Below are positions 5,955 through 30,221 of a DNA stretch of 35,938 nt, piece by piece; the first letter of the stretch is position 1, and every line of letters begins with the position of its first letter. The DNA comes from Fusobacteriaceae bacterium (GTDB lineage: Bacteria; Fusobacteriota; Fusobacteriia; Fusobacteriales; Fusobacteriaceae): positions 1 through 35,938 of the forward strand of contig JBOFDW010000011.1 of assembly GCA_051647385.1 (NCBI GenBank), given 5' to 3'. The position numbers and the translations under genes are program-made. The notes under the pieces are model-generated. The model had not been told where the DNA came from. It searched no databases and worked only from the letters and a program-made list of their open reading frames with translations.

Positions 5955-6052
5955 TAGAAATAGCTCTAATTTTATTTTTAGAAATTTTTTTTGTTTGGTC
6001 GAACAATGATAGCAAACCCAAATTAATTTTTAGTATTTTATTTTTTATAATT

Positions 6053-7222
6053 TTGGATTTAGCTTTTTTCAAACTTTTTTTCTCAACTTTGAAAACTGGT
6101 TTTTTTGAAAAAGCAGAAAAAGAAAGAAGAGATTTTTTATTTCATCGTTCAGTGGAAGAACTTGAAAAAATAGAATTAGAAAAGAAAAAATTAGTTGGAA
6201 TAATAAATTCTGTGGATATGGCAATAGTTTTAACAAATAAAAATTTTGGAATAATTTCTAAAAATAAAACTTTGGATTATCTTTTTCAACCTGCAACCAC
6301 AAATAATTGTCTTGCAAGTATAAAACACATTGAAATTATAAATATTATAAAAAATTTTCTAAAAAATAATAGAATTAAAGAAAAAAATAAAAATCAAAAT
6401 ATAGAAAAAGAAATTAGTGAAGAAGTTTATTTGATAAGTTTAAAAAAACATTTTTTGGTCACGATAAAATATTTTGAAGAATCTGAAAATTATTTGATAA
6501 TGATAAAAGATATTACTTTTATAAAAGAAATTTCAGAAATACAAAAAAAATTTATTAGTAATGTTAGCCACGAATTGAAAACTCCTCTTACAAATATAAA
6601 AGGATATCTTATTGCTCTTGAAGATTCACCACAAGATAAAAAAGCAGAATTTTTAAATATTATTTATAAAAATATTAATAAACTTGAAAATTTAATTTCA
6701 GATTTTTTAAATCTTGTAAAAATAGAAAATAATTCTTTCTTAAATATTCAAGATATAAAAATTTCTAAAATTAAAAATTCTTTAACAGAAAATTTGAACG
6801 GACTTATAAAAAATAAAAATGCTAAAATAAATTTTCATGGCAAATTTTCAAAAGAATATTCAGAAGAAATAATAAAAATAGATTTTGATAAAATTATTTT
6901 AATTTTAAAAAATCTTGTTGAGAATGGAATAATTTATAATATTAATCAAAGTCCAGAAATAAATATAACTTTTTTGGAAGAGGAAGGCAAATATAAATTT
7001 ATAGTTTCTGATAATGGAATTGGAATTTCTAGAGAAAATTACAAAAAAATTTACGAAAGATTTTATAGAGTTGATGAAGCGAGAACGACAAATCTTTCTG
7101 GTTCAGGACTTGGACTTGCCATTGTAAAAGAAATTATTCAAAATTTTAAAGGCACAATAATTTTAGAATCTGAGCTTGGAAGCGGTACAACTTTTGTTGT
7201 TGAATTTTTTCTACAACAATAA
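6053..7222 (+). CDS. sensor histidine kinase (HisKA + HATPase_c)
   Basis: H-box SHELKTPLTNIKGY, N-box NLVENGIIYN, G1 DNGIGI, G2 GSGLGLAIVKEI. The frame stays open upstream to 5936 and encodes TM-like segments, so the true start is probably upstream (see findings). Confidence 0.88.
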   Translation: MDLAFFKLFFSTLKTGFFEKAEKERRDFLFHRSVEELEKIELEKKKLVGIINSVDMAIVLTNKNFGIISKNKTLDYLFQPATTNNCLASIKHIEIINIIKNFLKNNRIKEKNKNQNIEKEISEEVYLISLKKHFLVTIKYFEESENYLIMIKDITFIKEISEIQKKFISNVSHELKTPLTNIKGYLIALEDSPQDKKAEFLNIIYKNINKLENLISDFLNLVKIENNSFLNIQDIKISKIKNSLTENLNGLIKNKNAKINFHGKFSKEYSEEIIKIDFDKIILILKNLVENGIIYNINQSPEINITFLEEEGKYKFIVSDNGIGISRENYKKIYERFYRVDEARTTNLSGSGLGLAIVKEIIQNFKGTIILESELGSGTTFVVEFFLQQ

Positions 7223-7257
7223 AACTGTAAACTAAAAATTATATTATAAAAAATATA

Positions 7258-7292
7258 AAAAAAGCACAAAATTTTCTATTTTGTGCTTTTAA
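7258..7292 (+). terminator. rho-independent terminator after the two-component operon
   Basis: AGCACAAAAT-tttct-ATTTTGTGCT stem followed by T residues, 40 bp after the kinase stop. Confidence 0.7.
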
Positions 7293-7381
7293 AATTTAGT
7301 ATTATAAGTTCAAAATTATTTATAATGTAATTTTATATTATAATTTTAAATTTTACCACAGTTTTATGACATGTTTTTTTT

Positions 7382-7410
7382 TTGACAAATAGAAAATATA
7401 AGTGTATAAT
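7382..7410 (+). promoter_or_regulatory. sigma70-like promoter of the XRE-TPR regulator
   Basis: TTGACA (7382-7387), exact 17-nt spacer, then TATAAT (7405-7410) with a TG extension. A T-run lies upstream. Confidence 0.6.
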
Positions 7411-7457
7411 TTCTCATACTCAATATATTTTTTGTTGGTAAATTAGGTAGAGGAGGA

Positions 7458-8741
7458 ATGAAAATGAAAAAGTATTTGTCACCACATGAGAAGATAGCAA
7501 TTCTTAGAAGAAAATACGATATTACTCAAGAAGAACTTGCTGCAAATCAGAAATTTTCAAAAATATCATTAGCACTTATAGAAACAAAAAGAAGAGGTGC
7601 TACTCCAAATATTGTAAAACTTATTTGTGAAAATTTCAACGAAGTTTTTAAGAAAAAAAATATTAAAGATCATGCTGATTTTGACGAAATAATAAAATCA
7701 AAGGCTGAACAGGCAAAAGAATTTTTGGATGATTTGCTTGCAAAAAATATGATTATAAAAACAGGTGTAACAGATATAGATGAGGCTATATTTGAACTTG
7801 AATCAGTTGACAATTCAAAATATTGTTTCACAATTGGAAAACTTTTTTTTGAAAATGGTAATATGAAATATGCGAAATATTATATTGGAAAAGGAATGCT
7901 TGGTCATTTCGGTAAAAAAGAACTTCACAATTTAAAAGATTTAATTTTGATGAGCGTTCAAATAAATAATAATTCAGGAAACTTTGAAGAGACGATTTCC
8001 ATGGTAGAGAGATACAAAACTGAAATTCAGACTGTTACAGAAATTGTTTGCCATACAATTATGTATTATTATGCTGTTGCACTTTTTGAAACAGGAAAAG
8101 TAAAAGAGGCTGTGACTATTTTGACTCCTCTTTCTAAAGGGAAAAGAGTTCAAGATAAAATTTTGAAACTTAAAATCAAAATTACACTTGCTGAAATAGG
8201 TTATAAAAATTTTAGTAGAAGAAAGAAATCTGTAAAAACATTTTTTTCTCTATTAGCCGAGGCACCAGACAATGCAAAAAGAGAAATTTATTTTAATATG
8301 TTAGAAATAGGTCTAATAGATAAAAAAATAATTAATATCGAAGAAATTATAAAAACATTAGAGGTGTCTTTAAAATCTTCAAAACCAAATCAGTGTGAAC
8401 TTTTCAAAATTTATTTGAAAATAGCTAAAGCTTATGAGCTAATAAAAAATCCTGATTTAGCAAAAGAATATTTTGCAAAAGCTTTGAGTTTAAGCGATGA
8501 GTCAATTACAAATAAAATGAAATTTGATGCAATATCTAGTGCTATAAAATTTGTGTTTGACTTAGGGCTTACGAAATTTAAAAAAGAAAAAAATTATATA
8601 GAAAGTTTAGAAAAAATTTACAAAGAATTATTTGCTAAAGAGAAAAATTTTGAACCACTAACTTATTTCATAGAATTTTATTCTGAATGGAAAAAGTTTT
8701 CAGTTAAAGAATATTTATCTTATTACAGAAATATAAGATAA
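7458..8741 (+). CDS. XRE-family HTH regulator with C-terminal TPR-like domain (RNPP-like architecture)
   Basis: N-terminal HTH (ITQEELAANQKFSKISLALIETKRRGATPNIV) followed by about 350 aa of helical-repeat sequence. SD spacing favours the second ATG at 7464. Confidence 0.75.
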   Translation: MKMKKYLSPHEKIAILRRKYDITQEELAANQKFSKISLALIETKRRGATPNIVKLICENFNEVFKKKNIKDHADFDEIIKSKAEQAKEFLDDLLAKNMIIKTGVTDIDEAIFELESVDNSKYCFTIGKLFFENGNMKYAKYYIGKGMLGHFGKKELHNLKDLILMSVQINNNSGNFEETISMVERYKTEIQTVTEIVCHTIMYYYAVALFETGKVKEAVTILTPLSKGKRVQDKILKLKIKITLAEIGYKNFSRRKKSVKTFFSLLAEAPDNAKREIYFNMLEIGLIDKKIINIEEIIKTLEVSLKSSKPNQCELFKIYLKIAKAYELIKNPDLAKEYFAKALSLSDESITNKMKFDAISSAIKFVFDLGLTKFKKEKNYIESLEKIYKELFAKEKNFEPLTYFIEFYSEWKKFSVKEYLSYYRNIR

Positions 8742-13227: not shown

Positions 13228-13267
13228 TATTTTTTCTCCCGTATGTTTTTTTGGAAAATTTTTATTG

Positions 13268-13945
13268 TTATATATTGTTTGTAGATGAATTGTTTTTTTT
13301 TAGATAGGAATTTTTTGTATAATAATTTTCCATACCATCAATAATTTTTTCAATAAATTGGAAGACCTCATTTTGAATTTTATCTAAATCATTTAATGTA
13401 AGATTGCTAGAGCATTCAGAAAAAGAAACCAAACCATGTGCTAAATTATTTCTAGCATTTTTAACTATTTCAAGCTTTTCAGCTTGTGGGACTTTATACC
13501 TAATCTTATGGCGATCACAAATTTTTTTTATTACATTATCGTCTAAATTTCCATTTATTCCAATCATTTTTCTATTAAAAATCATAGAATGATTTAATAT
13601 GATTTCATCAACAACATTTTTAAAACCTTTGCTGTGTCCATTTTTATCTAAAGAATTATTAAAGAGATTTGTAGAATTATGATCTAACCAAATCTTTTGT
13701 AGTTCTACTATAAGACTATTGTATGAATGGCTACCATCTTTAATCTTCTCATAAATTTCCTCAATACCTTTCATAATAGTTGCTTCTACTAAATTGTATA
13801 GCATCAAAAGAAAATTTGATTTTAAAATTCGGAATAAAGATTTTGGATTTATTTCGACAAAATTATTTAAAAAATTGTAAAACTCTGTCACTTCATTTTT
13901 TCTAGTTGCAAAAATTTCTTTTGTGGAAACCATGATTACAATCAC
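13268..13945 (-). CDS. HEPN-domain protein (predicted RNase)
   Basis: All-helical-looking 221-225 aa protein with a single canonical Rx4H motif, ARNNLAHG (nt 13436-13453). The GTG at 13945 overlaps the upstream stop (GTGA); an alternative ATG at 13933 has the SD GGGTGA. Confidence 0.7.
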   Translation of the reverse strand: MIVIMVSTKEIFATRKNEVTEFYNFLNNFVEINPKSLFRILKSNFLLMLYNLVEATIMKGIEEIYEKIKDGSHSYNSLIVELQKIWLDHNSTNLFNNSLDKNGHSKGFKNVVDEIILNHSMIFNRKMIGINGNLDDNVIKKICDRHKIRYKVPQAEKLEIVKNARNNLAHGLVSFSECSSNLTLNDLDKIQNEVFQFIEKIIDGMENYYTKNSYLKKNNSSTNNI

Positions 13946-14982
13946 CCTTTTAATAGTTGATTTTTTACATATACTACCCTTTCCTCCAATTTTCCTTTAT
14001 TATTACTAGCATCGGAAGTAGTTAATTCTTTGAATTTATGAGAATCCAACCAATCTATATTTGTTGGATATAAGTTAATTTTTTCTCTTAGAGCCAAAGC
14101 AACACCAACTGAAATAGCTTCAAATCTAACCCTAGGAGTTGTACTTGAGTCTTTTGATTTAGCAAAGCCAAATGGGAAATGTTTCTCAACAAATTTCAAC
14201 ATTGATTCAAATTCTTTTTTAAATTTTTCTTCGTCAAAACTATTAAGATTATTCTTAAGATATTCATCTAAAAAATTTTTGACTTCATTTCCAACATTTT
14301 CATAATTATTTAAATATGCAAAAAATCTCAAGACAAATTCAAATCGATCTTTTTGATTTACTTTTTTTGCTGATAGAGGAGCCAATTTTATGAAATCTTT
14401 ATTGTCTGAACATAATTCAATAAAAGAAGTTAATTTCCCGCGATATGCACCACGTCTAACTTCAGATGGGACGGCATTTTTACCAGCTGTATTTATTCTA
14501 TGAAAAAGATCTATTCTAACGTCTTCTGTTGTATTTTCATCTAATATTATAATCCTTAAAGAAATATTTAAAAATTTATCTTTTCGGGCATTTAGTAAAT
14601 CTTCATAATAGAAACCGTTAAGCTCTGTCAATTTTTTAAGTCCTTCTATTTTGAATTTATTCCCAATAAAATCGCTAATTGTTCTAGTCCTTTGAGCTCC
14701 GTCAATAATTTCAAATGTACCATTTGAACAAGTTGCGAAAAACATAAAAGGAATTGGCAAACCTAGAAAAAGAGACTCTATAAAAAAGTTTTTATTCTCA
14801 GAAGTCCATACATCAGCTCTTTGATATTCAGGGATAAAAAATGATTTTTTTGTAAATTTTTCAACAAGTAATTCAACTGTATAATCTTTTGTATCATACT
14901 TTACATTTTTATTGAGTGTTGCTATCTGTAAATCAGCTTTAAGTTTATTTTCATGAGAAATATTTTTGTTTTCTACTGTCAT
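13942..14982 (-). CDS. DUF262 (ParB/DndB-like) domain protein without DUF1524 nuclease module
   Basis: Signature motifs IPEYQRADVW, FEIIDGAQRTRTI and DLFHRINTAGKNAVPSEV. The start overlaps the methyltransferase stop (ATGA). Confidence 0.8.
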   Translation of the reverse strand: MTVENKNISHENKLKADLQIATLNKNVKYDTKDYTVELLVEKFTKKSFFIPEYQRADVWTSENKNFFIESLFLGLPIPFMFFATCSNGTFEIIDGAQRTRTISDFIGNKFKIEGLKKLTELNGFYYEDLLNARKDKFLNISLRIIILDENTTEDVRIDLFHRINTAGKNAVPSEVRRGAYRGKLTSFIELCSDNKDFIKLAPLSAKKVNQKDRFEFVLRFFAYLNNYENVGNEVKNFLDEYLKNNLNSFDEEKFKKEFESMLKFVEKHFPFGFAKSKDSSTTPRVRFEAISVGVALALREKINLYPTNIDWLDSHKFKELTTSDASNNKGKLEERVVYVKNQLLKG

Positions 14983-16055
14983 AGTTTACCTTCTCTTTTT
15001 AAATGATTTAAAATACTTAATCCAACTGCATGACCTAATTCAACTGGAACCGCATTGCCGATGTGCATTCCAATATTTCTAGTATTAAGATTTTTTTCTT
15101 GATCTAAAAACAAATAATTCTCTGGGAAAGATTGAAGTATTGCACCCTCTCTTAATGAAAGTGCTCTTTCCTGATCTGGATGACCAAATCGACCGTTTCC
15201 ATATCCAAAAAATTGAGTGGTTATAGTTGGTGCAGGAGCATCCCAACACATCCGACCATATACGGAAGAATAAGATTTGCCACTAGATTTTTTATGACAC
15301 TTAAGCCTTAATTTTTCGTCCCAGTCTCTCCATGTTCCACCTGGCTTTGATTGCCTTATTCTAGCAATATTCATCTTAGAAAGCTTTGCACACCTATGTA
15401 ATAAATCTTTTGCAGAAAAATCCCCATGTTTTAAAGGAGGGAGATGACCTATTGCTTGACGAACAGTTGGATATTTATTTGGAGATGTAAATGGAGGAAC
15501 TAAAATTATTTTACCAAATCGCGACGCTAAAAGCACTAATCTTTTTCTATTTTGAGGAACACCATATGAAGCAGAATTTACAATATCAAAACTTACATAA
15601 TAACCTAGTTCTTCCAACTTTTTTATGAAATCATTAAACACATCAGTTTTAGGAAGAGCAGCAACATTCTCCATAGAAATTATATCTGGCAAAATTCCTT
15701 CAACTAAGTTTGAAAAAGAATATAATAATTTCCACTTTTCATCTTGATGACCGTTTTTTCTATATCTATCTGTATATTTGGAGAAAGGTTGGCATGGAGC
15801 ACAACCCATTAAAATTTTTATGGAGTTTTTAGGATATAATAAATTGAGTTCTGAAGATGAAATAGAAGTTATGTCTTTATTTATAAAAATAGAACCATTA
15901 TTTTTTTCATAAGCAAACCTACATGACTCATCAATGTCAATTCCAGCTATAACTTCTATTCCAGATTTTTGAACACCATAAGTAAGCCCACCAACACCAC
16001 AAAACAAATCAACAGCAACACACTTCAAAATTTTCATCCTCCTTGCAACCAACAT
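14979..16055 (-). CDS. dcm: DNA (cytosine-5)-methyltransferase
   Basis: Motif I DLFCGVGG, motif IV GCAPCQPFS, motif VI ENV, motif VIII QNRKR, motif X GNAVPVEL. The start may instead be the ATG at 16037. Confidence 0.9.
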   Translation of the reverse strand: MLVARRMKILKCVAVDLFCGVGGLTYGVQKSGIEVIAGIDIDESCRFAYEKNNGSIFINKDITSISSSELNLLYPKNSIKILMGCAPCQPFSKYTDRYRKNGHQDEKWKLLYSFSNLVEGILPDIISMENVAALPKTDVFNDFIKKLEELGYYVSFDIVNSASYGVPQNRKRLVLLASRFGKIILVPPFTSPNKYPTVRQAIGHLPPLKHGDFSAKDLLHRCAKLSKMNIARIRQSKPGGTWRDWDEKLRLKCHKKSSGKSYSSVYGRMCWDAPAPTITTQFFGYGNGRFGHPDQERALSLREGAILQSFPENYLFLDQEKNLNTRNIGMHIGNAVPVELGHAVGLSILNHLKREGKL

Positions 16056-16229
16056 ATAATAAATTTAGCTAAATATATTTTAACATATTTTTTCTCATAT
16101 ATCTATATTTTTATAAATGAAATATTTATATATAAATAACAAAAATAAGAGCCAGCAATAAAATACTGACCCTCAAACAATATATTACATTTATTTTTTC
16201 TATGCTATCAAAAAAAATTGCAAAACTTT

Positions 16230-18787: not shown

Positions 18788-20110
18788 TTAAAACTTTGTT
18801 ACTATCCCAGCTCTAAAAAATCCAGACGGTTTCATGTCAATGACACCTGGAACCCAACCTCTAGATTTATATCCTCCACCAATAGTTACATCAAAATTTT
18901 CTTTTATATTTATATTATAATCAAGAGCAACCATTCCACCAAAATCCATTTCACTTGCATAAAATTTCAAATCTTTTGGTTGTTGCCATCCGTGGATTTC
19001 ATAAGTAATATCTCCATACGGAACTTTGAGAGCAGTTTGTTTAAACATTAGTCCATAACCTGCTTCTCTATAATTTGTATTTCTTGTGAAAGTTAATTGA
19101 TATCTGTTATAATTATTTTTTGGTATAAAATATGTATCCAACATAAATTGTTGACCGAAAGGCGTTAGCCAAAATCTTGTGGCAAAGTTAAAATATAAAC
19201 TGTCACCAGCCGAAATTCTTTTTACTCCAAATATTTGAGGGTCAAGAAAATTGAAAAAACTTCTTTCTGAAGCTACATCTTGATATTTTATTTCTTCTTC
19301 AGTTGGAATCCATTCATCAATTCCGTAAACAGCTTCATTTTTTTCATTGAATCTTAAATATGAATCGTTTGGATTAAATAAATCATAAACCCACATCATA
19401 GTATCTCCATACAAAACATCTTTTCTGTTTTGTGTTGGATTTTTTTTAAGATCAGCAAGTGTGTTAGAATCTGACGCTAAGTATGCTACGCTTCCTAAGG
19501 CTGTTAGAACCATCATAAAACTATCCATAGATTTTGTATAGTAATTAAAAGAACGCGAACTCATTGTTCTTAGCCATTGGGTTTCCATTTCAATGCCCGA
19601 TATATCAACCCTTACGAGTTCTGAAATATTATTTTTTTTCAACTCATTTAGTTGTAACTCACCTGCTTCACTTGGAGTAGTTGAACCTCCGATACCTGAT
19701 GCCCCACCAATTTTTATTTGAGAATCAATTCCGTTATACTGCAAAATTGTATAATGCCCTTGTTCATGTGCCCATACATTCCCAGTCAAATAGAATCCAA
19801 GATCTGCAGTTATAATTGCGAGTTGTGTAAATCTCAAATCAATGTCAAAATGCCCAATCCAATAGTGGATACCTTGAGTAGATCCATCAACATAACCTAA
19901 TGTTGAAGCCATTGAAGGTCTTGTTATAGGATTACCACTACTGTTGTAAGGAAATTCTAAAATAGGAAACTGTGCATAAAAATCATAATCACTTTCAAGT
20001 CTTTTCTTTAATCTGTTTTTCTCATAAATTTCTTTTATACTTATTTCTTCCTCAGCAAAAATGACAGAGCCAATTATTAAAATAAAAAATAACACCAAAA
20101 ATTTCCTCAT
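18788..20110 (-). CDS. secreted/outer-membrane protein with HExxH motif
   Basis: The real start is the ATG at 20110 (SD GGAGG; MRKFLVLFFILIIGSVIFA signal peptide). The C-terminus ...GFFRAGIVTKF ends in Phe, as in a beta-barrel signature. An internal AHEQGH motif is present. The ORF-track N-terminal extension reads through the promoter module. Confidence 0.6.
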   Translation of the reverse strand: MRKFLVLFFILIIGSVIFAEEEISIKEIYEKNRLKKRLESDYDFYAQFPILEFPYNSSGNPITRPSMASTLGYVDGSTQGIHYWIGHFDIDLRFTQLAIITADLGFYLTGNVWAHEQGHYTILQYNGIDSQIKIGGASGIGGSTTPSEAGELQLNELKKNNISELVRVDISGIEMETQWLRTMSSRSFNYYTKSMDSFMMVLTALGSVAYLASDSNTLADLKKNPTQNRKDVLYGDTMMWVYDLFNPNDSYLRFNEKNEAVYGIDEWIPTEEEIKYQDVASERSFFNFLDPQIFGVKRISAGDSLYFNFATRFWLTPFGQQFMLDTYFIPKNNYNRYQLTFTRNTNYREAGYGLMFKQTALKVPYGDITYEIHGWQQPKDLKFYASEMDFGGMVALDYNINIKENFDVTIGGGYKSRGWVPGVIDMKPSGFFRAGIVTKF

Positions 20111-20291
20111 AAACTTTTTTCCTCCGTTTAGTTTTTTGTTTTGTACAAAAATATAGGCACTGAATTTATTGTATATTGCCCCGTAAGTTTTGTCAATGTA
20201 TTTGTATATAAATCTTCGCGAAATTTCTGTGTGAAATATTTTTGAGGGCAAAAAAAATCCCCGTGCAAAATTTCACACAGGGAAAAGTTTT
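20107..20291 (-). repeat. 185-bp terminator-promoter-leader module, copy A
   Basis: Near-identical to 20972-21157. It contains the terminator hairpin, TTGACA/TACAAT promoter, leader, SD and start codon. Confidence 0.85.
20168..20196 (-). promoter_or_regulatory. promoter of the 440-aa OMP gene
   Basis: Minus-strand TTGACA, 17-nt spacer, TACAAT, inside the repeated module. Confidence 0.6.
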
Positions 20292-20330
20292 AAAATATTA
20301 TGTTTCATAAAATTTTATAATTTATCTTTA

Positions 20331-20975
20331 TTAATAACTAACTAAATTAAATTTATAGCCTAGAGCCACAACTCCACTTGTATAGTTTACCTTAGAACCA
20401 ATATTTTCTCCTTTTTGTTTCAAGAAGTTTTCAGTATAAGCATATGACATATCCAAAGAAAAATTTTTGTATTCAATTCCAAATCCCACAGATAAATACG
20501 CTCCTCCATCGTAAGCATAATTTTCTGTTGCTGGATTTGTATTTCCTTCATTATTATTTTGATATGAGTAATAATAACCTAAATCAAATTCTAAAAAAGG
20601 TTTGATTTCACCATTAGGATTAAAATAACTTTTTACTATAAAATACGCAGGAGCAGAAGTATATGTTCCAACTCTTTTTCCATTTATCTCTTCCTGATTT
20701 GGTAGTTGATGAACAGAAAAACCAAATCCCCATTCACTTTTAATTATTCCATTACGCTCTGCATAAGAAAAATCATTCGTGTCATAAAGAACATTTAAAG
20801 CAACGTGATAACCATTACCAGAAGTTTTTCCATTGTTTAATCCATTTGGCAATTTAGTAAAATTTCCTAAAAAATCACCTCCAGCTTTCACTTGCATTTT
20901 TAGAGTATTTTGTTTTTCTCCTTCAGCCATTGCGACTGCTGATAATAAAACTAGACACGCCAAAACTTTTTTCAT
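20331..20975 (-). CDS. small outer-membrane beta-barrel (porin-family/OmpW-opacity-like) protein
   Basis: The real start is the ATG at 20975 (MKKVLACLVLLSAVAMA signal peptide). The sequence shows alternating amphipathic strands and Gly/Tyr-rich stretches, and ends ...ALGYKFNLVSY. Confidence 0.7.
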   Translation of the reverse strand: MKKVLACLVLLSAVAMAEGEKQNTLKMQVKAGGDFLGNFTKLPNGLNNGKTSGNGYHVALNVLYDTNDFSYAERNGIIKSEWGFGFSVHQLPNQEEINGKRVGTYTSAPAYFIVKSYFNPNGEIKPFLEFDLGYYYSYQNNNEGNTNPATENYAYDGGAYLSVGFGIEYKNFSLDMSYAYTENFLKQKGENIGSKVNYTSGVVALGYKFNLVSY

Positions 20976-21157
20976 AAACTTTTTTCCTCCGTTTAGTTTT
21001 TTTGTTTTGTACAAAAATATAGACACTGAATTTATTGTATCTTGACCAGTAAATTTTGTCAATATATTTGTATATAAATCTTCGTGAAATTTTTCGTATG
21101 AAATATTTTCTGAGAGAAAAAAATCCCCGTGCAAAATTTCACACAGGGAAAAGTTTT
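20972..21157 (-). repeat. 185-bp terminator-promoter-leader module, copy B
   Basis: Near-identical to 20107-20291. Terminator hairpin at 21117-21157; promoter TTGACA/TACAAT at 21034-21062. Confidence 0.85.
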
Positions 21158-21196
21158 CAAATATTTTTCAAGATAAAAAATTATAAAAATATTAGC

Positions 21197-22984
21197 CTAG
21201 AATTTTTTTGGGATGTCCATAAAAAATCCATACTCTCTAAACAAGTCAGCAACTATTTGCAAAGAATCTTTCTTCACAAGAATATGAAAATCCTCGCCTT
21301 TCAAAATATGCGACTTAAATCTTTTATCCTTGGAGATACTTTCTATCAAAGTTTTCTCGTTCTCTAATTTTAAAACAATATATTCTGGAATATATTTTAT
21401 TGCAGTGGTTTTTTTCATCATGTCCTCCAAAAAAGTTCCCCAGCATTCTGGCAACTCATGTGATAACTTGCTCTTAAAAGTTTCTATACGCTCACGCACA
21501 TCTGTTGCAGTCATCAAGTCTTTCAAAAAACTTTCCTCTGTCAACTTGAATTTGTTTGGAGCAATCTTTGTAGAAATTTTACCAAAAAACATTGACTTAG
21601 AAGGTGCTTCACCAATAATAGTTGCGATGAGTCTGTCCTCGTCAAGCTGAACTTCCCCTTCTTCTTTAAGCTCGTTGAACTCAAAATTATTTGGGAAACC
21701 AAACACATACTTACCAAACTCTGTGAGTCGAACGGCTTTCAGTCCTTCATACTTGCTCAGATATCCGCTCTTCAAATATAAACTGATTTTTTGTGATGGA
21801 GCTTCATAGAAAACTTCCACGACTCCCAAAACTGCCAGTACAAAAAATGAAGATTTTATAAATGGAACTACGACATAGTTCAAATAATTTTCGTAGGTCT
21901 CAATTTTTGTCCGCTTATAATTTGCCTCGTTCAAATAAATATACCCGAAAGCATCTTCAACACTTACTATCTCAATAGGTTCATCTTGATATAAGATTCT
22001 CTTAACTATATTGTCAATACTTATGAGAGGGTTTGAAGTTTTGGTCACTGGAAATTCTCGGACAACTTTTTCGATAGTCCCGAGACAATCCTCAACAATT
22101 TCTTTTCCCTTGGGAGAATTTTTCAGCCCCTTTAAATAATTCATGTACAAAAAGCTGTAATGAAATTTTTCCTTACGAACAATTTTCCCAGAGAGAAAAT
22201 CCAGCACAAGTTTTTTCATACTATCAGCAGAAAAATTATCAGCTTTAATATGCCCGTCATCTATCAAGTGGAAAAATAAAGCGATAGTCTCCGTTTTTAA
22301 ATATAGCATTTCTTTTTCTTCGGTGAAATATTCGCTTATCTTACAATATTTTGCCATATTTTCTTTGGACTCTTTCAAAATTTTTCCAGAGGAAGAAATG
22401 GCGATACCACCTTGATCATAGAAATCACAGTACATCTTAATATTTTGCATGAAAGTTTTTTCATCATTGGCAGTGTAGCACTCATATTTTTTATTAGTTT
22501 TTCTAATTTCATAGTCAGGAGATTTTTCTGGAAGCACGTTCCAAAGTTCTCGCATCATGTCAAAGGGTAAAGTTAGGTACTCATTTTTTTTCATGTCTCT
22601 TTTTGCTTGGAAAAATAAATACTCATCTTTTAAATTTTTCTCGAGATTAAAAGTTGTGTGACCAGAAAAATAAAGTTGCCTATCTTTTTTGATAGTAAAT
22701 TTTCCTTCCCATGCAATCGTCTCAAAAATAGTTTTCATATTATCGTCGAGAGACTCAAAAATTTTATGAAAATTTTCTGGCTCAAACATTCTCACTACTA
22801 AATCTATCAGGACATCTCTGTCGCTGTCGGCTGTAATCATACAGCTAACTTTTGGGTTAGCCAAATCTTCCCCGAGATATCCGTCAACCATCCAATCCAA
22901 AAAATACGTATCGAATAATTTGCCGAGAATTTCTCGAGTATAAAGTTCTTTAACATCTCCAACGAATCTATCTTTTTTTCTCAT
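21197..22984 (-). CDS. hypothetical 595-aa protein, SNF2-helicase partner
   Basis: Long uninterrupted ORF 25 nt downstream of the SNF2 gene, followed by the repeated terminator. No catalytic or metal-binding motif recognised. Confidence 0.7.
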   Translation of the reverse strand: MRKKDRFVGDVKELYTREILGKLFDTYFLDWMVDGYLGEDLANPKVSCMITADSDRDVLIDLVVRMFEPENFHKIFESLDDNMKTIFETIAWEGKFTIKKDRQLYFSGHTTFNLEKNLKDEYLFFQAKRDMKKNEYLTLPFDMMRELWNVLPEKSPDYEIRKTNKKYECYTANDEKTFMQNIKMYCDFYDQGGIAISSSGKILKESKENMAKYCKISEYFTEEKEMLYLKTETIALFFHLIDDGHIKADNFSADSMKKLVLDFLSGKIVRKEKFHYSFLYMNYLKGLKNSPKGKEIVEDCLGTIEKVVREFPVTKTSNPLISIDNIVKRILYQDEPIEIVSVEDAFGYIYLNEANYKRTKIETYENYLNYVVVPFIKSSFFVLAVLGVVEVFYEAPSQKISLYLKSGYLSKYEGLKAVRLTEFGKYVFGFPNNFEFNELKEEGEVQLDEDRLIATIIGEAPSKSMFFGKISTKIAPNKFKLTEESFLKDLMTATDVRERIETFKSKLSHELPECWGTFLEDMMKKTTAIKYIPEYIVLKLENEKTLIESISKDKRFKSHILKGEDFHILVKKDSLQIVADLFREYGFFMDIPKKF

Positions 22985-23009
22985 AATTTACAAACCTCAA
23001 TTCCTTTTT

Positions 23010-25817
23010 TTATTCTGCACCAAAAATAAACTGTATATCATCCTCAGTCAAAAATTTTACCGAAGCGTTGTCCTCAGATATCAGGTTTTCTAGTAACTCG
23101 GTCTTTAAGCCTTGAAGCTTTAAAATTTTCTCTTCTATACTATCCTTCAAAATTAATTTGTAAGAAAATACTGTTCGGTCTTGCCCAATTCTGTAAGCTC
23201 TGTCCACAGCTTGGTTTTCCACAGTCTTATTCCACCACGGGTCATATATAAAAATAGTATCGGCGGAAGTTAAGTTGAGACCAACTCCACCAGTTTTTAA
23301 CGTCATTACGAAAACTTTATAGCTGCTATCTTTTTGAAACCTGTCAACTAAATTTTGCCTGTCGGTTGTAGCACCTGTCATGGTCAAATATTTTATTTTG
23401 AAAACATCCAGCTCCCTGCAAATTCCTTCGATGGAAGCAATATAATTTGTGAAGACCAAAACTTTATGCCCGTTGGCAACTGCGTCAGCAACACTATTTA
23501 TAAGATGCTTTCTTTTGCTGGATAATATTTTCGGGTTCTTACTTTCTGGGCAACTTGTAATTTGCCTCAGCTCGTTAATCGCCTGCAAAAGATAAAATTG
23601 CGACTTACCAAGTCCCTGCTCTTTAATCTGAGCTTTGACGGCGTCATAATAATAAATCCGCCTCTCTTCATAAAACTTTTTCTGGTCGTGGTTCATTTCT
23701 ATAACAACAGTTTGCTCGATTTTATCTGGCAAATCTTTTAGAACTTCTTTTTTTATCCTACGCAAAATAAATGGGTAGATTTTTTTTCTAAGCTCTTGAA
23801 TAACTTCTTTGTCATTGTCACGTTGAATAGGATTTGCATAAACAGCATTAAAAGTATCCAGCGACCCAAACATGTTTGGATTCAAAAATCTGAACAGTGA
23901 ATAAAGTTCTGTCAAATTATTTTCGATTGGAGTTCCGCTCAGTGCCAATCTATTATTAGAAGTTAATAGCATGATAGCTTTTGTAGTTTGAGCGTTTACG
24001 TTTTTTATATTCTGAGACTCGTCCAAAATTACCAGCTCAAAAGGAATCTTAGAAATTTTTTCGATGTCGTTCCTCACCGTACCATAAGTTGTCAAGATAA
24101 CTTCGTGCTCATCAAAAGTTTTCATGTCTCGAAAGTTTCCGTAATAAATTCCACTGTCAATTTGAGGTGCGAATTTTTTTATCTCACTTTCCCAGTTGAA
24201 TACCAAACTTTTTGGCATTACGACCAAACTTTTTCCAGATTTATTATCACAAATTTTTGATAGGAGGGCAATTGCCTGCAAAGTTTTTCCAAGCCCCATA
24301 TCGTCAGCCAGACATCCGCCCAAATTATTGTCCACCAAATAACACAGCCACTTGTAACCGTACTCTTGATATGTTCTCATCTCGGCTCGAACATTTGGCG
24401 GAGTAGTTTCATAATTTTCTATCTGATTTATCCCGTTAAAAAAGTTTGCACTCTTAATAAATTCTTGCCCGAAAATTTTTTCCTCAATCATTTCTTCCAC
24501 GATGGGCAAATCAAAGAAAGAAATTTTTACCGAATCACCAGAACTTCCAACATTAAATATTCGTTCAAGTTTTTCAATATATTTATGATTTATCAGTGCG
24601 TTTGTCCCGTCGCTCAAAACTATATAAGAATCAGTTTTGTATGTCGCAAGAATATCCGCAATGGAAAATTTTTCGCCCTCGATATCCAGCTTAACATTTC
24701 CTTCCAAAAAGTTTATAGAATGTTTGAAGCTACCAACTATTTTTGGCTTAACAGTTTTGATATTATATTTTTTTAATTTCTCAGCACCAACAACACGATA
24801 TTTTGTTGCGAACTTCAAAAGTTCTTTCCCGATAAATTCTTTCGCCAAAGCTTCTTGGAGTATGAGCATGTTGTCGTCGTCCAAATAAAATCCAGACCTG
24901 ACTTTTATTAGTCGCTGATGTTTCACGAGAGCCTTTGTAATTTCTTCAATGGCAACGCTCAGACCGCTCATATCTATTTCTGAAATCTGAATTTTTTTCT
25001 CCATATTATTTACGATGGCAATTTTCTCAATGCCGTTTTCTTTCAAGAAATCGTAACTCATTGTGGAAGCGCCAAGAGTAATTTTCATGTACAAACTATT
25101 ATCTTGGGAAATTTTTTCGATAATCATTTCAGGAACTAAAATTCTTTTCTCGCCACTGTCGATGGAATAATCCAAACAATTTATTTTGATATCGTGAAAA
25201 TACGTAGAAAAAATACTCAAAAAACTTTCCAGCTCCCACGATGAAAGTGATGATTGAAAATTTTTGAGCTCGTATATTGAGTCGTTTACTAAATCTAGCT
25301 TGAAAAATTTATCTTCGCAAAAAATATAATCGTCGTCAATAATTGTAATATCAGAATATTGTTCGTTTAAAAGAAAAAGACTTTTGAGTTTTATCCCTTC
25401 GTCTTGGTCTTCAACCTCGATAATATTTAGAGCAACAGAATTATTTTCAGGAAAATATTCTATCTGCTTGAAATTTTCATCAACAAAAATATTTGAATGC
25501 ACCAAAAGTTTCACAAGCTCTGGGTCATTGGAAATATATAACAGCTCAGAAAGTTTTGCAGCCTGAGCTTCGTCCATCTCTTCGTCTGTTGACCATGCGT
25601 CAAAATTCCATTGGCTCAAGTCCTCAGATTTTTTGCTTGCGGTTATGTAATCCAAAATTTCCAAATTTTGTTGAGACAAGTTAAATTTTTCAAAATTTAT
25701 TTTCAGCTCAGAAAATTCTTCCGTCTTTTCTCCGTCAAATATAATCGTTTCAACATAAGGACCTATTTCATTATTTTTAAGCATAAAATAAATTCCACGT
25801 TCAATAGGTATCATCAA
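23010..25817 (-). CDS. SNF2-family helicase with about 480-aa uncharacterised N-terminal region
   Basis: Motif I DDMGLGKT, motif II VILDESQNIKN, helicase-C motifs (LKTGGVGLNLTSADTIFIYDPWWN, QAVDRAYRIGQ). SD AGGAGAA upstream. Confidence 0.9.
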   Translation of the reverse strand: MMIPIERGIYFMLKNNEIGPYVETIIFDGEKTEEFSELKINFEKFNLSQQNLEILDYITASKKSEDLSQWNFDAWSTDEEMDEAQAAKLSELLYISNDPELVKLLVHSNIFVDENFKQIEYFPENNSVALNIIEVEDQDEGIKLKSLFLLNEQYSDITIIDDDYIFCEDKFFKLDLVNDSIYELKNFQSSLSSWELESFLSIFSTYFHDIKINCLDYSIDSGEKRILVPEMIIEKISQDNSLYMKITLGASTMSYDFLKENGIEKIAIVNNMEKKIQISEIDMSGLSVAIEEITKALVKHQRLIKVRSGFYLDDDNMLILQEALAKEFIGKELLKFATKYRVVGAEKLKKYNIKTVKPKIVGSFKHSINFLEGNVKLDIEGEKFSIADILATYKTDSYIVLSDGTNALINHKYIEKLERIFNVGSSGDSVKISFFDLPIVEEMIEEKIFGQEFIKSANFFNGINQIENYETTPPNVRAEMRTYQEYGYKWLCYLVDNNLGGCLADDMGLGKTLQAIALLSKICDNKSGKSLVVMPKSLVFNWESEIKKFAPQIDSGIYYGNFRDMKTFDEHEVILTTYGTVRNDIEKISKIPFELVILDESQNIKNVNAQTTKAIMLLTSNNRLALSGTPIENNLTELYSLFRFLNPNMFGSLDTFNAVYANPIQRDNDKEVIQELRKKIYPFILRRIKKEVLKDLPDKIEQTVVIEMNHDQKKFYEERRIYYYDAVKAQIKEQGLGKSQFYLLQAINELRQITSCPESKNPKILSSKRKHLINSVADAVANGHKVLVFTNYIASIEGICRELDVFKIKYLTMTGATTDRQNLVDRFQKDSSYKVFVMTLKTGGVGLNLTSADTIFIYDPWWNKTVENQAVDRAYRIGQDRTVFSYKLILKDSIEEKILKLQGLKTELLENLISEDNASVKFLTEDDIQFIFGAE

Positions 25818-29195: not shown

Positions 29196-30026
29196 TTATT
29201 TTGCTCCGTATTGCATTAATAATTTTTCAATAGAATTGTACTCTAGTTTTCTAGCAAGTTCAAGTGAAGTGTCTCCGTCAGAATTTTTTACATTTGGATT
29301 AGCTCCATACTCCAATAAAGTTTTAACACATGAATAATGCCCGTTCAGTGACGCTACTATTAGAGGTGTTGCTTGAGCATTATTTCTTGCATCAATATTT
29401 GCTTTATTGTTAATCAAATATCTAACTATAGTTTCATCACCTTTTACTGCTGCAACATGCAAAGGAGTCCACCCATCGTTGTCGGAAATATTCGGATTAG
29501 AATTATTCTCTAACAAAATATTTACGATTTCTTTATTCCCTGCCTCAACTGCATACCTTAGAGCTGTCCAACCATCTTTATCTTTTGCATTCACATTTGC
29601 TTTATTGTTAATCAAATATCTAACTATAGGTTCATTCCCTTTTGCTGCAACATGCAAAGGAGTCAATCCATCGTTGTCGGAAATATTCGGATTGGAATTA
29701 TTCTCTAACAAAATATTTACGATTTCTTTATTACCTACCTCAACTGCATACCTTAGAGCTGTCAAACCATCTTTATCTTTTGCATTCACATTTGCTTTTG
29801 CATTGATTAAAATTTTTACAGCCTCTTGATTTTCAAGTGGAACAGCGTACATTAAGGCTGTTATAGTATTTTTCAACTCATTTACATTATCACCTTTTTT
29901 CAAGGTATTTTTTAATGCGTCCATATCATTATTGTCGACTGCGTCAATTACTGGTCCAGCAAAAACTAAAGTTGAAACCAAGCTCATTAAAAATATTACT
30001 GATAAAAACTTTTTTAAACCTCTCAT
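29196..30026 (-). CDS. secreted ankyrin-repeat protein
   Basis: The ATG at 30026 follows the SD GGAGGG. Signal peptide MRGLKKFLSVIFLMSLVSTLVFA. At least seven ANK repeats are present (DGxTxLxYAV..GN.EIV..LL..NAN.N). Confidence 0.85.
   Translation of the reverse strand: MRGLKKFLSVIFLMSLVSTLVFAGPVIDAVDNNDMDALKNTLKKGDNVNELKNTITALMYAVPLENQEAVKILINAKANVNAKDKDGLTALRYAVEVGNKEIVNILLENNSNPNISDNDGLTPLHVAAKGNEPIVRYLINNKANVNAKDKDGWTALRYAVEAGNKEIVNILLENNSNPNISDNDGWTPLHVAAVKGDETIVRYLINNKANIDARNNAQATPLIVASLNGHYSCVKTLLEYGANPNVKNSDGDTSLELARKLEYNSIEKLLMQYGAK
29398..29795. repeat. tandem duplication (2 x about 197 bp) inside the ankyrin gene
   Basis: 29401-29598 and 29599-29793 are near-identical apart from a 3-nt indel and a few substitutions. 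Each unit encodes two ANK repeats. Confidence 0.85.
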
Positions 30027-30221
30027 TTTTATTCCCTCCAACTTTATTTGTATCTAAAAAAATACAGACTTAAAATATTATAGTTTACAGTTATAATATT
30101 TGTCAATTCATTCAACAGAAAATTTTTCACACAAAAATATAACTTACCAGTAACTTTATGCGAAAATATATGATATAATGTTTAGAGTAATTGAGTAAAA
30201 CTTTTTGGAGGAGATTTTAAT

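Follow-up and report, generated by a model that had tools for sequence, protein, structure and literature searches.

Operons that join a HEPN gene to genes for a ParB-fold DUF262 protein and a DNA methylase were predicted in 2013, when a MAE_28990 HEPN-ParB(DUF262)-DNA methylase operon was entered as one line of a table, without mechanism or experiment (Anantharaman et al., 2013, Biol Direct 8:15, Table 1; PMC3710099). The same three components, with no substantive difference, make up a minus-strand cassette in the DNA analysed here, a stretch of 35,938 nucleotides from a Fusobacteriaceae bacterium (the window). Computationally, the cassette has been known since 2013, and the present locus is a new Fusobacteriaceae instance of it. 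An earlier, sequence-only reading of this DNA had described the survey correctly and had regarded the trio as experimentally uncharacterised, in agreement with our literature search, which found no experimental study. Added here to the 2013 entry are counts of gene architectures, the swapping of methylases, a methylase-less clade, HTH regulators and structure models.

The closest experimentally tested system is PD-T4-2, a validated two-gene anti-T4 system of E. coli ECOR65 (Vassallo et al., 2022; PMC9519451, PMC10952713). It was overlooked in the sequence-only reading, and it lowers the novelty of the trio. As in the window, a DUF262 protein without DUF1524 lies beside a small HEPN protein, and PF18735, reported for PD-T4-2 (PMC10952713), is also matched by many HEPNs of the present family. 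In contrast, PD-T4-2 is described as two genes without a methylase component, its PD-T4-2_B profile fails to match the window HEPN, and the window DUF262 protein has a far better score with NsnA than with PD-T4-2_A.

NsnA belongs to Menshen (NsnABC; Millman et al., 2022; Li et al., 2025, NAR 53:gkaf357). The window DUF262 protein matches it over nearly its full length and shares the architecture of the proposed Menshen sensor, a ParB-DUF262 domain followed by a helical, DNA-binding 'ParBDB' region. However, the NsnB ATPase and the NsnC inPIN-nuclease effector are lacking here, the partner being a HEPN protein: no NsnB or NsnC profile matched it in PADLOC, and the next gene downstream of the HEPN gene is lolC. 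Furthermore, about 28% of Menshen operons merely neighbour restriction-modification (R-M), BREX or methylase genes, whereas the window methylase lies inside the operon. In GmrSD, BrxU and SspE, DUF262-DUF1524 enzymes of the type IV or PT-sensing kind, DUF262 is an NTP-dependent sensor of DNA modification (PMC12065111, PMC10952713). The window protein has the same N-terminal NTPase-type fold with QRxxxW, DGxQR and FxxxN motifs, and BrxU is its best structural match, but it differs from these enzymes in lacking the DUF1524 His-Me domain, in having a separate HEPN effector and in belonging to a methylase-coupled pair rather than one targeting modified DNA.

Type II R-M systems with a C-protein or an SsoII-type HTH-methylase resemble the cassette in that a C5 methylase with all its motifs comes first in the operon, and in homologues of the cassette an XRE HTH stands either ahead of the methylase or in fusion with it; unlike them, the cassette has no recognisable restriction endonuclease fold, and the window copy has no HTH. 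A precedent for an RNA-targeting arm of R-M is provided by the HEPN anticodon nucleases of PrrC-EcoprrI and RloC, which are linked to R-M systems and are also discussed in PMC3710099. Both PrrC and RloC have an ABC-type ATPase domain of their own and stand guard over complete, DNase-bearing type I or III R-M systems. The likeness lies in the genetic tie between a HEPN RNase, predicted in our case, and a DNA-methylation system separating self from non-self; the window differs in having no evident DNase and a ParB-fold protein as HEPN partner.

As a tentative best explanation, to which we give somewhat less than an even chance, the cassette could be a horizontally acquired, R-M-like defence or addiction module consisting of a DUF262-HEPN core and a coupled C5 methylase, with a mechanism that we infer below.

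Layout of the cassette

According to the list of open reading frames, the three genes lie on the minus strand in the order methylase, DUF262, HEPN, with nrdJ and lolC as neighbours.

14979-16055, minus strand: C5 cytosine DNA methyltransferase gene (gene 1), 358 aa if counted from the first ATG, although an ATG or TTG a few codons downstream may be the true start
13942-14982, minus strand: DUF262 gene (gene 2), ParB-fold, without nuclease domain, 346 aa; predicted DNA sensor
13268-13933, minus strand: MAE_28990-family HEPN gene (gene 3), 221 aa from the ATG at 13933; predicted RNase effector
13268-13945, minus strand: HEPN gene from the alternative GTG start at 13945, 225 aa
16146-16175, minus strand: terminator-like hairpin downstream of nrdJ, a 12-pair stem then a T-run in a consensus scan; a pattern match only
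16056-16105, minus strand: promoter-like hexamers (16105-16077) directly upstream of the methylase, two sites, each matching 9/12 positions
13228-13267, minus strand: 40-bp spacer between cassette and lolC, containing a GGGAG ribosome-binding site but no terminator

The promoter-like sites, found by the same kind of scan, are TAGATA-17-TAAAAT with an upstream TG and TTAAAA-16-TATTAT, and the hairpin would insulate the cassette from nrdJ transcription.

Overlaps of 4 nt had been claimed for both gene junctions. That between methylase and DUF262 genes is present in the sequence as ATGA at 14979-14982. At the second junction the GTGA at 13942-13945 is present too, but the GTG at 13945 is likely not a start codon. 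Forty HEPN homologues begin with 'MxNT...', aligning with the ATG at 13933 (MVST...), which is preceded at a distance of 9 nt by a Shine-Dalgarno-like GGGTG and agrees with the database gene call of 221 aa. This ATG is thus the most likely start, so that an 8-nt gap is more probable than a 4-nt overlap; the junction is still tight, those of homologues varying between an 8-nt overlap and a 4-nt gap.

The three proteins

All three Pfam matches of the cassette proteins exceed their gathering scores, and their homologues reach E-values of 1e-49 to 1e-134. Gene 1 had been read as a C5 methylase with its hallmark motifs, and both profiles and scripted motif location agree. The protein matches PF00145 (Pfam; 8.8e-59, 200 bits against a cut-off of 22), TIGR00675 (NCBIfam; 7e-43, 147.5 against 100.65) and, in PADLOC, DrmMII PDLC02651 (1.9e-97) and MTase_II PDLC03378 (1.7e-92). 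Catalytic motifs I, IV, VI, VIII and X are all intact:

15987-16010, minus strand: DLFCGVGG (motif I)
15780-15806, minus strand: GCAPCQPFS (motif IV)
15663-15671, minus strand: ENV (motif VI)
15540-15554, minus strand: QNRKR (motif VIII)
15045-15059, minus strand: GNAVP (motif X)

A tblastn search with a Dehalobacter HTH protein as query revealed no XRE/C-protein regulator in the window, and the absence of this regulator from the window copy counts against our best explanation.

Gene 2 had been recognised as carrying the DUF262 signature without DUF1524, as Pfam, PADLOC and NCBIfam profiles now confirm. Residues 42-178 match GmrSD_N (PF03235; 1.8e-24, 87.4 bits against a cut-off of 33.2), and no Pfam match to the DUF1524 His-Me nuclease occurs at E <= 1; with 346 aa, the protein compares with roughly 580-820 aa for solved DUF262 proteins. 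Its best PADLOC match is the Menshen sensor NsnA (PDLC03877; 6.6e-57, residues 19-335 against profile positions 34-371 of 385), the match to PD-T4-2_A being far weaker (3.6e-31). Three motifs stand in columns that are invariant among 40 DUF262 homologues:

14806-14826, minus strand: YQRADVW (QRxxxW)
14689-14706, minus strand: IDGAQR (DGxQR, nucleotide-binding; role taken from PMC12065111 and PMC10952713)
14491-14505, minus strand: FHRIN (FxxxN)

In a search with the AF2 model (pLDDT 88), the best fold match was BrxU 7p9k (8.7e-4), followed by ParB/Noc CTPase domains; the low TM-scores of these matches are due to the several domains of the model. The C-terminal half (residues 180-346) is modelled as all-helical and 'ParBDB'-like. 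The proposal that gene 2 is DndB-like was not upheld at the level of protein families. At E <= 1, Pfam returned only GmrSD_N and a weak PspAA match, NCBIfam returned none, and the neighbours are lolC and nrdJ rather than dnd genes.

No recognisable type II endonuclease had been seen in the cassette, and none emerged here: Pfam, NCBIfam, PADLOC and fold search detected no restriction endonuclease fold (PD-(D/E)xK, HNH, GIY-YIG, PLD, half-pipe) in gene 2 or gene 3, save for the PADLOC profile REase_II PDLC03418, which matches the DUF262 domain at 2.6e-14 and so must itself include a DUF262-like domain. A DNase domain was likewise found neither in the cassette by Pfam, NCBIfam and PADLOC nor by the fold search with the DUF262 model. 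These results bear on the proposal of 2013, in which the DUF262 protein would itself nick or cleave unmethylated DNA, with the HEPN RNase as a suicide back-up when restriction fails. The survey called the partner a 'ParB nuclease' and placed HEPN genes in R-M operons as back-up effectors (PMC3710099), and the PDLC03418 match, the methylase-first operon and the XRE regulators of homologues all suit a classical R-M system. Yet every characterised DUF262 enzyme cuts through a separate DUF1524 His-Me domain (PMC10952713), absent here; the helical C-terminal half is described as DNA-binding in NsnA and SspE (PMC12065111); and catalytic DNase residues were not found in the DUF262 protein. We regard this two-tier scheme as unlikely.

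Gene 3 had been taken for a HEPN gene with one Rx4H motif, a reading that now has the support of a match to PF18737, the Pfam model that bears the name of the MAE_28990 family (1.5e-19; 71.5 bits, cut-off 26.8; positions 9-211 of the 211 in the profile), and of a motif, RNNLAHG, in which R, L, A, H and G do not vary among 40 family members:

13436-13453, minus strand: RNNLAH (R-x4-H catalytic motif)

Homologues number 165 at E <= 1e-3, the best 120 of these 165 at 1e-42 or better, and are labelled 'MAE_28990/MAE_18760 family HEPN-like nuclease' by NCBI; the family comprises about 1,000-1,500 clusters at 50% identity. The PD-T4-2_B profile gave no match to the window HEPN at E <= 1, a best E of 0.0078 among 10 diverse relatives, and no match in four phage or plasmid pairs examined. 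The AF2 model is all-helical (pLDDT 73) and retrieves solved HEPNs (2hsb, 8xdj) only at E ~3; gene 3 is assigned to HEPN by its sequence profile and motif, and the want of a significant match to a solved HEPN counts against our best explanation.

Distribution and co-inheritance

Gene architectures were counted in 80 loci from species-representative genomes. In essentially all of them, the gene directly upstream of the HEPN gene is a DUF262 relative, and a C5 methylase adjoins the pair in 54/80, as methylase-DUF262-HEPN (48 loci) or DUF262-HEPN-methylase (six); four further loci have an MmeI-type methylase. The trio therefore does co-occur in other genomes, the contrary of which had been named as grounds for abandoning the sequence-only reading. 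The cassette recurs across many bacterial phyla, with the methylase-first order kept in 48 species and stop and start codons overlapping in homologous operons, and the window methylase is 50-66% identical to the pair-linked methylases of more than 40 other species. In at least 13 of the 48 loci, the methylase is directly adjoined by an XRE HTH gene; in Paenibacillus the two are fused. Pairwise distances are correlated between DUF262 and HEPN proteins (Spearman 0.90), methylase and DUF262 (0.71), and methylase and HEPN (0.70), each with a Mantel p of 0.001 over 36 loci plus the window; these correlations could partly reflect shared descent. The gene order, tight junctions and correlated evolution seen in dozens of genomes support the earlier claim of one expression unit. 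Chance juxtaposition of an orphan methylase and two unrelated genes has a negligible probability and is refuted by these comparative data, since order and tight junctions recur in 48 species of several phyla and the proteins co-evolve.

In the DUF262 tree, separate clades go with the methylase lineage of the window, with an unrelated C5 methylase (~30% identity) or with an MmeI/Eco57I-type methylase. The pair has been coupled to different methylases repeatedly and independently, the pattern expected if it needs a protective mark. In a further clade, found in Flavobacteriia, cyanobacteria and E. coli IncF plasmids, the pair is surrounded by housekeeping genes and a C5 methylase is lacking within 6 kb, which means that the pair is not universally methylase-dependent and that sensing of unmethylated DNA cannot be universal for it. 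This clade counts against our best explanation, as does a P2-like phage copy in which an intact pair lies beside a frameshifted methylase, a frameshift that may be a sequencing error.

The methylase-less pairs also speak for a type IV-like arrangement, in which the pair would sense foreign modified DNA in the manner of GmrSD, BrxU, Dazbog and probably PD-T4-2, and the methylase would travel along in a separate role, for instance shielding a mobile element from the restriction systems of other hosts. Known DUF262 sensors recognise modified DNA, and T4, the target of PD-T4-2, is hypermodified (PMC9519451, PMC10952713, PMC12065111). We consider this arrangement improbable in view of the methylase/DUF262 stop-start overlap, the order kept in 48 species, the methylase-DUF262 distance correlation, the independent recruitment of different methylase types and the occurrence of R-M-type HTH regulators; moreover, a 5mC-sensing partner next to a C5 methylase would risk self-attack.

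Copies of the cassette are found on ICE-like elements, plasmids and prophages. Plasmid and prophage copies have the methylase lineage of the window in convergent orientation, at 52-54% identity, and the methylase of a Moraxella prophage aligns over nearly the whole protein, variable region included. Such mobility, together with the very tight DUF262-HEPN coupling, would suit a toxin-antitoxin-like addiction module with a HEPN toxin, a DUF262 antitoxin or DndB-like repressor and the methylase as cargo, whose main role would be stabilisation of the element rather than phage defence. The sister HEPN family MAE_18760 is predicted to form toxin-antitoxin pairs with ParA-like ATPases (PMC3710099), and DndB is an NTP-dependent repressor (PMC12704722). 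Nevertheless, the Pfam and NCBIfam matches of gene 2 include no DndB family, the relative PD-T4-2 is a validated phage-defence system, and the repeated acquisition of methylases would be left unexplained, so that addiction as the main role has a low probability.

Origin and possible insertion at lolC

The closest homologues of all three proteins come from Bacillota (about 43-66% identity), and the GC content is 24-33% in the cassette against 34-38% in the flanking genes. In Fusobacteriaceae relatives the cassette is absent at lolC. As part of our best explanation, sequence comparison suggests that it was horizontally acquired and is foreign to Fusobacteriaceae. The short distance to lolC that had been pointed out is correct, the spacer being exactly 40 bp, with no terminator-like site in a consensus scan and no recognisable conservation with relatives outside the ribosome-binding site and start region. 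From this spacing, an insertion reading through into lolC had been proposed. Insertion is plausible, but no empty site was found among the Fusobacteriaceae compared, and read-through into lolC is nothing out of the ordinary at this locus: in relatives, the place of nrdJ upstream of lolC is taken by recQ or a PBP gene, with equally short spacers.

Possible mechanism

If the cassette is an R-M-like module, the methylase would be made first and would place 5-methylcytosine on target sites of the host DNA. The DUF262 protein, with its NTP-binding DGxQR pocket and helical DNA-binding domain, would engage incoming DNA that lacks the mark and thereby activate its HEPN partner, most likely as a complex. 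The HEPN protein would then cut RNA, halting phage or plasmid gene expression and perhaps, by abortive infection, the growth of the host too. We infer three points of this scheme: what the sensor reads (the unmethylated state), what it activates (the HEPN protein) and what is cut (RNA). PD-T4-2, likewise composed of DUF262 and HEPN, protects E. coli from T4 (PMC9519451). A more specific form of this scheme, possible but rather doubtful, is R-M without a DNase, in which a ParB-fold NTP switch would load on DNA without the cognate 5-methylcytosine and license the HEPN RNase, giving methylation-gated abortive infection or translation arrest; an epigenetic distinction of self from non-self, made on DNA, would thus have RNA cleavage as its output. 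By analogy with ParB clamps, the DUF262 protein would be a loader or spreader whose loading site is blocked by methylation. Characterised DUF262 sensors (GmrSD, BrxU, SspE and probably Dazbog) answer modified and not unmodified DNA, an observation that counts against our best explanation.

Significance

As one more instance of an operon listed in 2013, the cassette is a useful lead rather than a surprise. DUF262-HEPN pairs are a widespread immune module, and their methylase-coupled form offers a handle that PD-T4-2 lacks, namely a defined and genetically separable self-mark. Should the methylase prove to protect against the pair, it would follow that DUF262 sensors are able to detect a missing modification as well as one that is present, an RNA-targeting effector arm would be added to the logic of R-M, and the cassette would explain transformation barriers in gut Bacillota, Bacteroidota, the Streptococcus mitis group and Fusobacteriaceae.

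Gene organisation

Three minus-strand genes lie between nrdJ, upstream of the methylase gene, and lolC, downstream of the HEPN gene. A sequence-only reading had described them as a restriction or abortive-infection cassette, and its three ORFs are all present where it had placed them:

14979-16055, minus strand: gene 1, C5 methylase, ORF of 358 aa
13942-14982, minus strand: gene 2, DUF262 protein, ORF of 346 aa
13268-13945, minus strand: gene 3, HEPN protein, ORF of 225 aa when read from GTG
13933, minus strand: alternative in-frame ATG of gene 3 (MVST...), start of a 221-aa gene call in the database
16175-16146, minus strand: terminator-like hairpin between nrdJ and the methylase gene
16105-16056, minus strand: promoter-like hexamers between nrdJ and the methylase gene

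Every motif that had been quoted was found intact in the window: DLFCGVGG, GCAPCQPFS, ENV, QNRKR and GNAVP in the methylase, YQRADVW, IDGAQR and FHRIN in the DUF262 protein, and RNNLAH, encoded at 13436-13453, in the HEPN protein. By direct reading, genes 1 and 2 overlap in an ATGA stop/start at 14979-14982. A second 4-nt overlap had been proposed between genes 2 and 3; its GTGA is in the sequence (13942-13945), but the overlap itself is probably wrong. The true start of gene 3 is probably the ATG at 13933, leaving an 8-nt gap, since 40 homologues start with 'MxNT...' in register with this codon, GGGTG stands 9 nt upstream of it and the 221-aa gene call begins there. Homologues have anything between an 8-nt overlap and a 4-nt gap here, and tight coupling of the two genes is thus conserved with either start. 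The spacer between the cassette and lolC measures 40 bp and holds no terminator-like site, as had been stated.

Domain content and structure models

Gene 1 matches Pfam DNA_methylase (8.8e-59) and TIGR00675 (7e-43), and shares the catalytic core alone with its PDB relatives DNMT1, M.HaeIII and M.HhaI. Gene 2 matches Pfam GmrSD_N (1.8e-24, residues 42-178), and profile searches gave neither a DUF1524 nor a DndB match. The description of a DUF262 protein lacking DUF1524 was thus borne out, whereas at the family level its likeness to DndB was not: the best PADLOC match is NsnA of the Menshen system (6.6e-57, nearly full length), followed by PD-T4-2_A (3.6e-31). In the AlphaFold2 model of gene 2 (pLDDT 88), an alpha/beta domain at the N terminus is followed by a C-terminal half made up of helices only; BrxU (7p9k) is the top PDB match, and ParB/Noc CTPase domains come next. 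This agrees with the 'ParB-DUF262 + ParBDB DNA-binding domain' architecture reported for NsnA, SspE and GmrSD (PMC12065111).

Gene 3 matches Pfam HEPN_MAE_28990 over its full length (1.5e-19), and PADLOC gives no match better than 1e-3. Its model is all-helical (pLDDT 73); Foldseek against the PDB returned no significant match, and a profile search of the PDB sequences brought up no relevant entry. The HEPN call, which stands, is therefore based on the Pfam profile match and on an R-x4-H motif that is invariant in 40 family members.

The PADLOC REase_II profile also matches gene 2 (2.6e-14), in the DUF262 region only. Pfam, PADLOC and fold search gave no nuclease in the C-terminal half of gene 2. 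Neither gene 2 nor gene 3 yielded a DNase fold, in line with the reported lack of a type II endonuclease, and a reading of the DUF262 protein as a DNase, with the HEPN protein as back-up effector, appears unlikely.

Relation to known systems

The operon was already listed in Table 1 of Anantharaman et al. (2013), who catalogued the MAE_28990 HEPN, ParB-like and methylase architecture (PMC3710099), as the sequence-only reading had stated. DUF262 was tied to modification systems, sometimes fused to HEPN, by Makarova et al. (2013). Literature searches for the methylase-coupled trio yielded the 2013 prediction alone and no experimental study, as had been supposed. The nearest validated analogue is PD-T4-2, a DUF262 + HEPN (PF18735) system acting against T4 (PMC9519451, PMC10952713). 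The analogy in composition holds, but membership was rejected on the HEPN component: the PD-T4-2_B profile matches neither the window's HEPN protein, nor 10 distant relatives, nor four phage or plasmid pairs. NsnA of Menshen is a proposed DNA sensor (PMC12065111).

Recurrence in other genomes

Homologues of genes 2 and 3 are many, and their match lists share contigs. Among 1.84 billion 50%-identity clusters, the HEPN family counts 1,559 representatives at E <= 1e-3 and 1,062 at E <= 1e-10; nearly all of the best 150 matches listed are stand-alone proteins of ~220-240 aa. The methylase-DUF262-HEPN order, with genes overlapping or abutting, recurs in Dehalobacter, Paenibacillus, Sporomusa and a gut ICE-like element present on hundreds of contigs. 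Regulators of restriction-modification (R-M) style accompany it: in Dehalobacter and Sporomusa the methylase gene is immediately preceded by an XRE HTH gene, and in Paenibacillus the two are fused. The window itself contains no XRE/C-protein gene.

When one genome per GTDB species was scanned, 115 relatives were confirmed, and 80 of their loci were retained. In essentially every one, the gene immediately upstream of the HEPN match encodes a DUF262 relative.

Architectures of the 80 loci
Methylase-DUF262-HEPN: 48
DUF262-HEPN-methylase, with a different C5 methylase (~30% identity): 6
DUF262-HEPN pair with no C5 methylase within ~6 kb: 18
Locus at a contig edge: 7
Truncated locus: 1

The 18 loci without a C5 methylase are of several kinds. 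In four, the pair is flanked by genes for an MmeI/Eco57I-type methylase on one side and a large helicase-like protein on the other:

L067:685-10731, Pseudoxanthomonas
L069:14-10754, Brachymonas
L072:155-10071, Hydrogenophaga
L084:588-10724, Alcanivorax

The upstream ORFs are 1025-1391 aa long; Pfam identifies that of L067 as an MmeI/Eco57I-type methylase, and the other three are like it in size and in having an xPPx motif. The large downstream ORF (up to ~1330 aa) matches Helicase_C in L067 and L069. These loci look like a different, larger system embedding the same pair. Several others are in decay: L059 (4586-5659) has an ISL3 transposase inserted between its DUF262 and HEPN genes, and the DUF262 genes of L041, L045, L082, L085 and L088 are truncated. 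The remainder have housekeeping neighbours such as ApbE, NuoB, LepA, a tRNA synthetase and Asd. Also recorded was a gammaproteobacterial MAG (L044:2268-5511) in which three DGxQR-containing ORFs (175, 173 and 397 aa) surround one HEPN gene, which may reflect sensor duplication or fragmentation.

Evolutionary coupling

Pairwise distances were compared by Mantel test across 36 complete loci and the window. They are correlated most closely between DUF262 and HEPN proteins (Spearman 0.90), then between methylase and DUF262 (0.71) and methylase and HEPN (0.70), each at p = 0.001. Together with the gene order and tight junctions conserved in dozens of genomes, this upholds the view of the cassette as a single unit. 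Placed on the DUF262 tree, methylases of the window's lineage are found with the pair on deeply separated branches and in two orientations; elsewhere the pair is joined by an unrelated C5 methylase or, in other clades, by an MmeI-type enzyme, and one clade has no methylase. The DUF262-HEPN pair is therefore the invariant core, which has repeatedly recruited DNA methylation and also exists without it.

Copies on mobile elements

On a Klebsiella plasmid and in the Moraxella Mcat prophages, the methylase gene beside the pair is convergent with it and belongs to the window's lineage (52-54% identity). E. coli IncF plasmids have the two-gene pair by itself, and in a P2-like phage the accompanying methylase gene is frameshifted. 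HEPN relatives are present on only six IMG/VR contigs, of which three have the full trio. The P2-like copy is in Peduovirus P2_4B2:

L092:2021-3029 (NC_049387.1): split methylase, convergent to an intact DUF262-HEPN pair

This C5 methylase, of the window's lineage, is read in two frames (query residues 14-240 versus 239-353). If the frameshift is real, P2_4B2 is a natural case of the pair beside an inactivated methylase.

Host and acquisition

The closest LolC relatives belong to uncultured Fusobacteriaceae (68% identity), those of Fusobacterium and Cetobacterium reaching ~60-62%. Since the nearest LolC is this distant, and a 15-billion-protein collection has the window's HEPN, DUF262 and LolC proteins on this contig alone, the host lineage is poorly sampled. 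Relatives keep lolC-lolD-hpf, with recQ or PBP1C upstream across spacers of ~1-78 bp, and every relative examined lacks the cassette at this locus. The nearest homologues of all three cassette proteins are from Bacillota (~43-66% identity), and the GC content of the cassette is 24-33%, against 34-38% in its neighbours.

The cassette had been seen as an insertion reading through into an essential operon. Horizontal acquisition is indeed likely, but no trace of an insertion was found: no empty lolC-nrdJ site (the best LolC relatives have recQ or PBP1C instead), no direct or inverted repeats of note at either end of the cassette, no tRNA gene in the window, which is the whole contig, and no spacer conservation with relatives at lolC. 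An Rfam scan of the window gave no family at gathering score. Read-through into lolC is plausible and, short spacers being found in relatives too, not unusual for this locus.

Three other regions of the window were recorded:

18788-25817, minus strand: gene for a 935-aa SNF2 helicase (PADLOC DpdE and ZorD helicase profiles, 1.7e-123), then three ORFs (595, 267 and 487 aa) that neither Pfam nor PADLOC matches, just upstream of nrdJ
29196-30041, minus strand: 281-aa protein matching PADLOC candidate PDC-M72A (1.4e-45) and an ankyrin profile
6001-7500: histidine-kinase gene and flank, GC 19-21% against 31% for the window

The SNF2 helicase locus may have a housekeeping role (RapA-like) or be a further locus of defence type.

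Proposed mechanism and significance

The best-supported reading, tentative and at somewhat less than even chances, is that the cassette is an R-M-like module. The genetic side of this reading is observed, from domains, intact motifs and gene order to coupling, co-evolution, methylase recruitment and R-M-style HTH regulators, and the biochemical side is inferred. The methylase would mark self DNA, and the DUF262/ParBDB protein would be an NTP-dependent DNA sensor that may recognise unmethylated DNA and activate the HEPN protein, with RNA as putative target. The methylase-less clade and the phage copy with a broken methylase count against it, as does the response of characterised DUF262 sensors to modified, not unmodified, DNA (PMC10952713, PMC12065111). 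A modification-dependent pair, with a methylase independent of it, is improbable; the methylase distances follow those of the DUF262 protein. A toxin-antitoxin-like addiction module is equally improbable; it would leave the repeated recruitment of methylases unexplained, and the relative PD-T4-2 is validated in phage defence.

The original finding is accurate and its interpretation reasonable. The architecture was catalogued in 2013, and its two-gene core has a validated relative; the copy described here adds an instance from a new host family to a widespread system. That its restriction arm is a methylation-gated RNase is possible though doubtful and, if true, would be of high interest.
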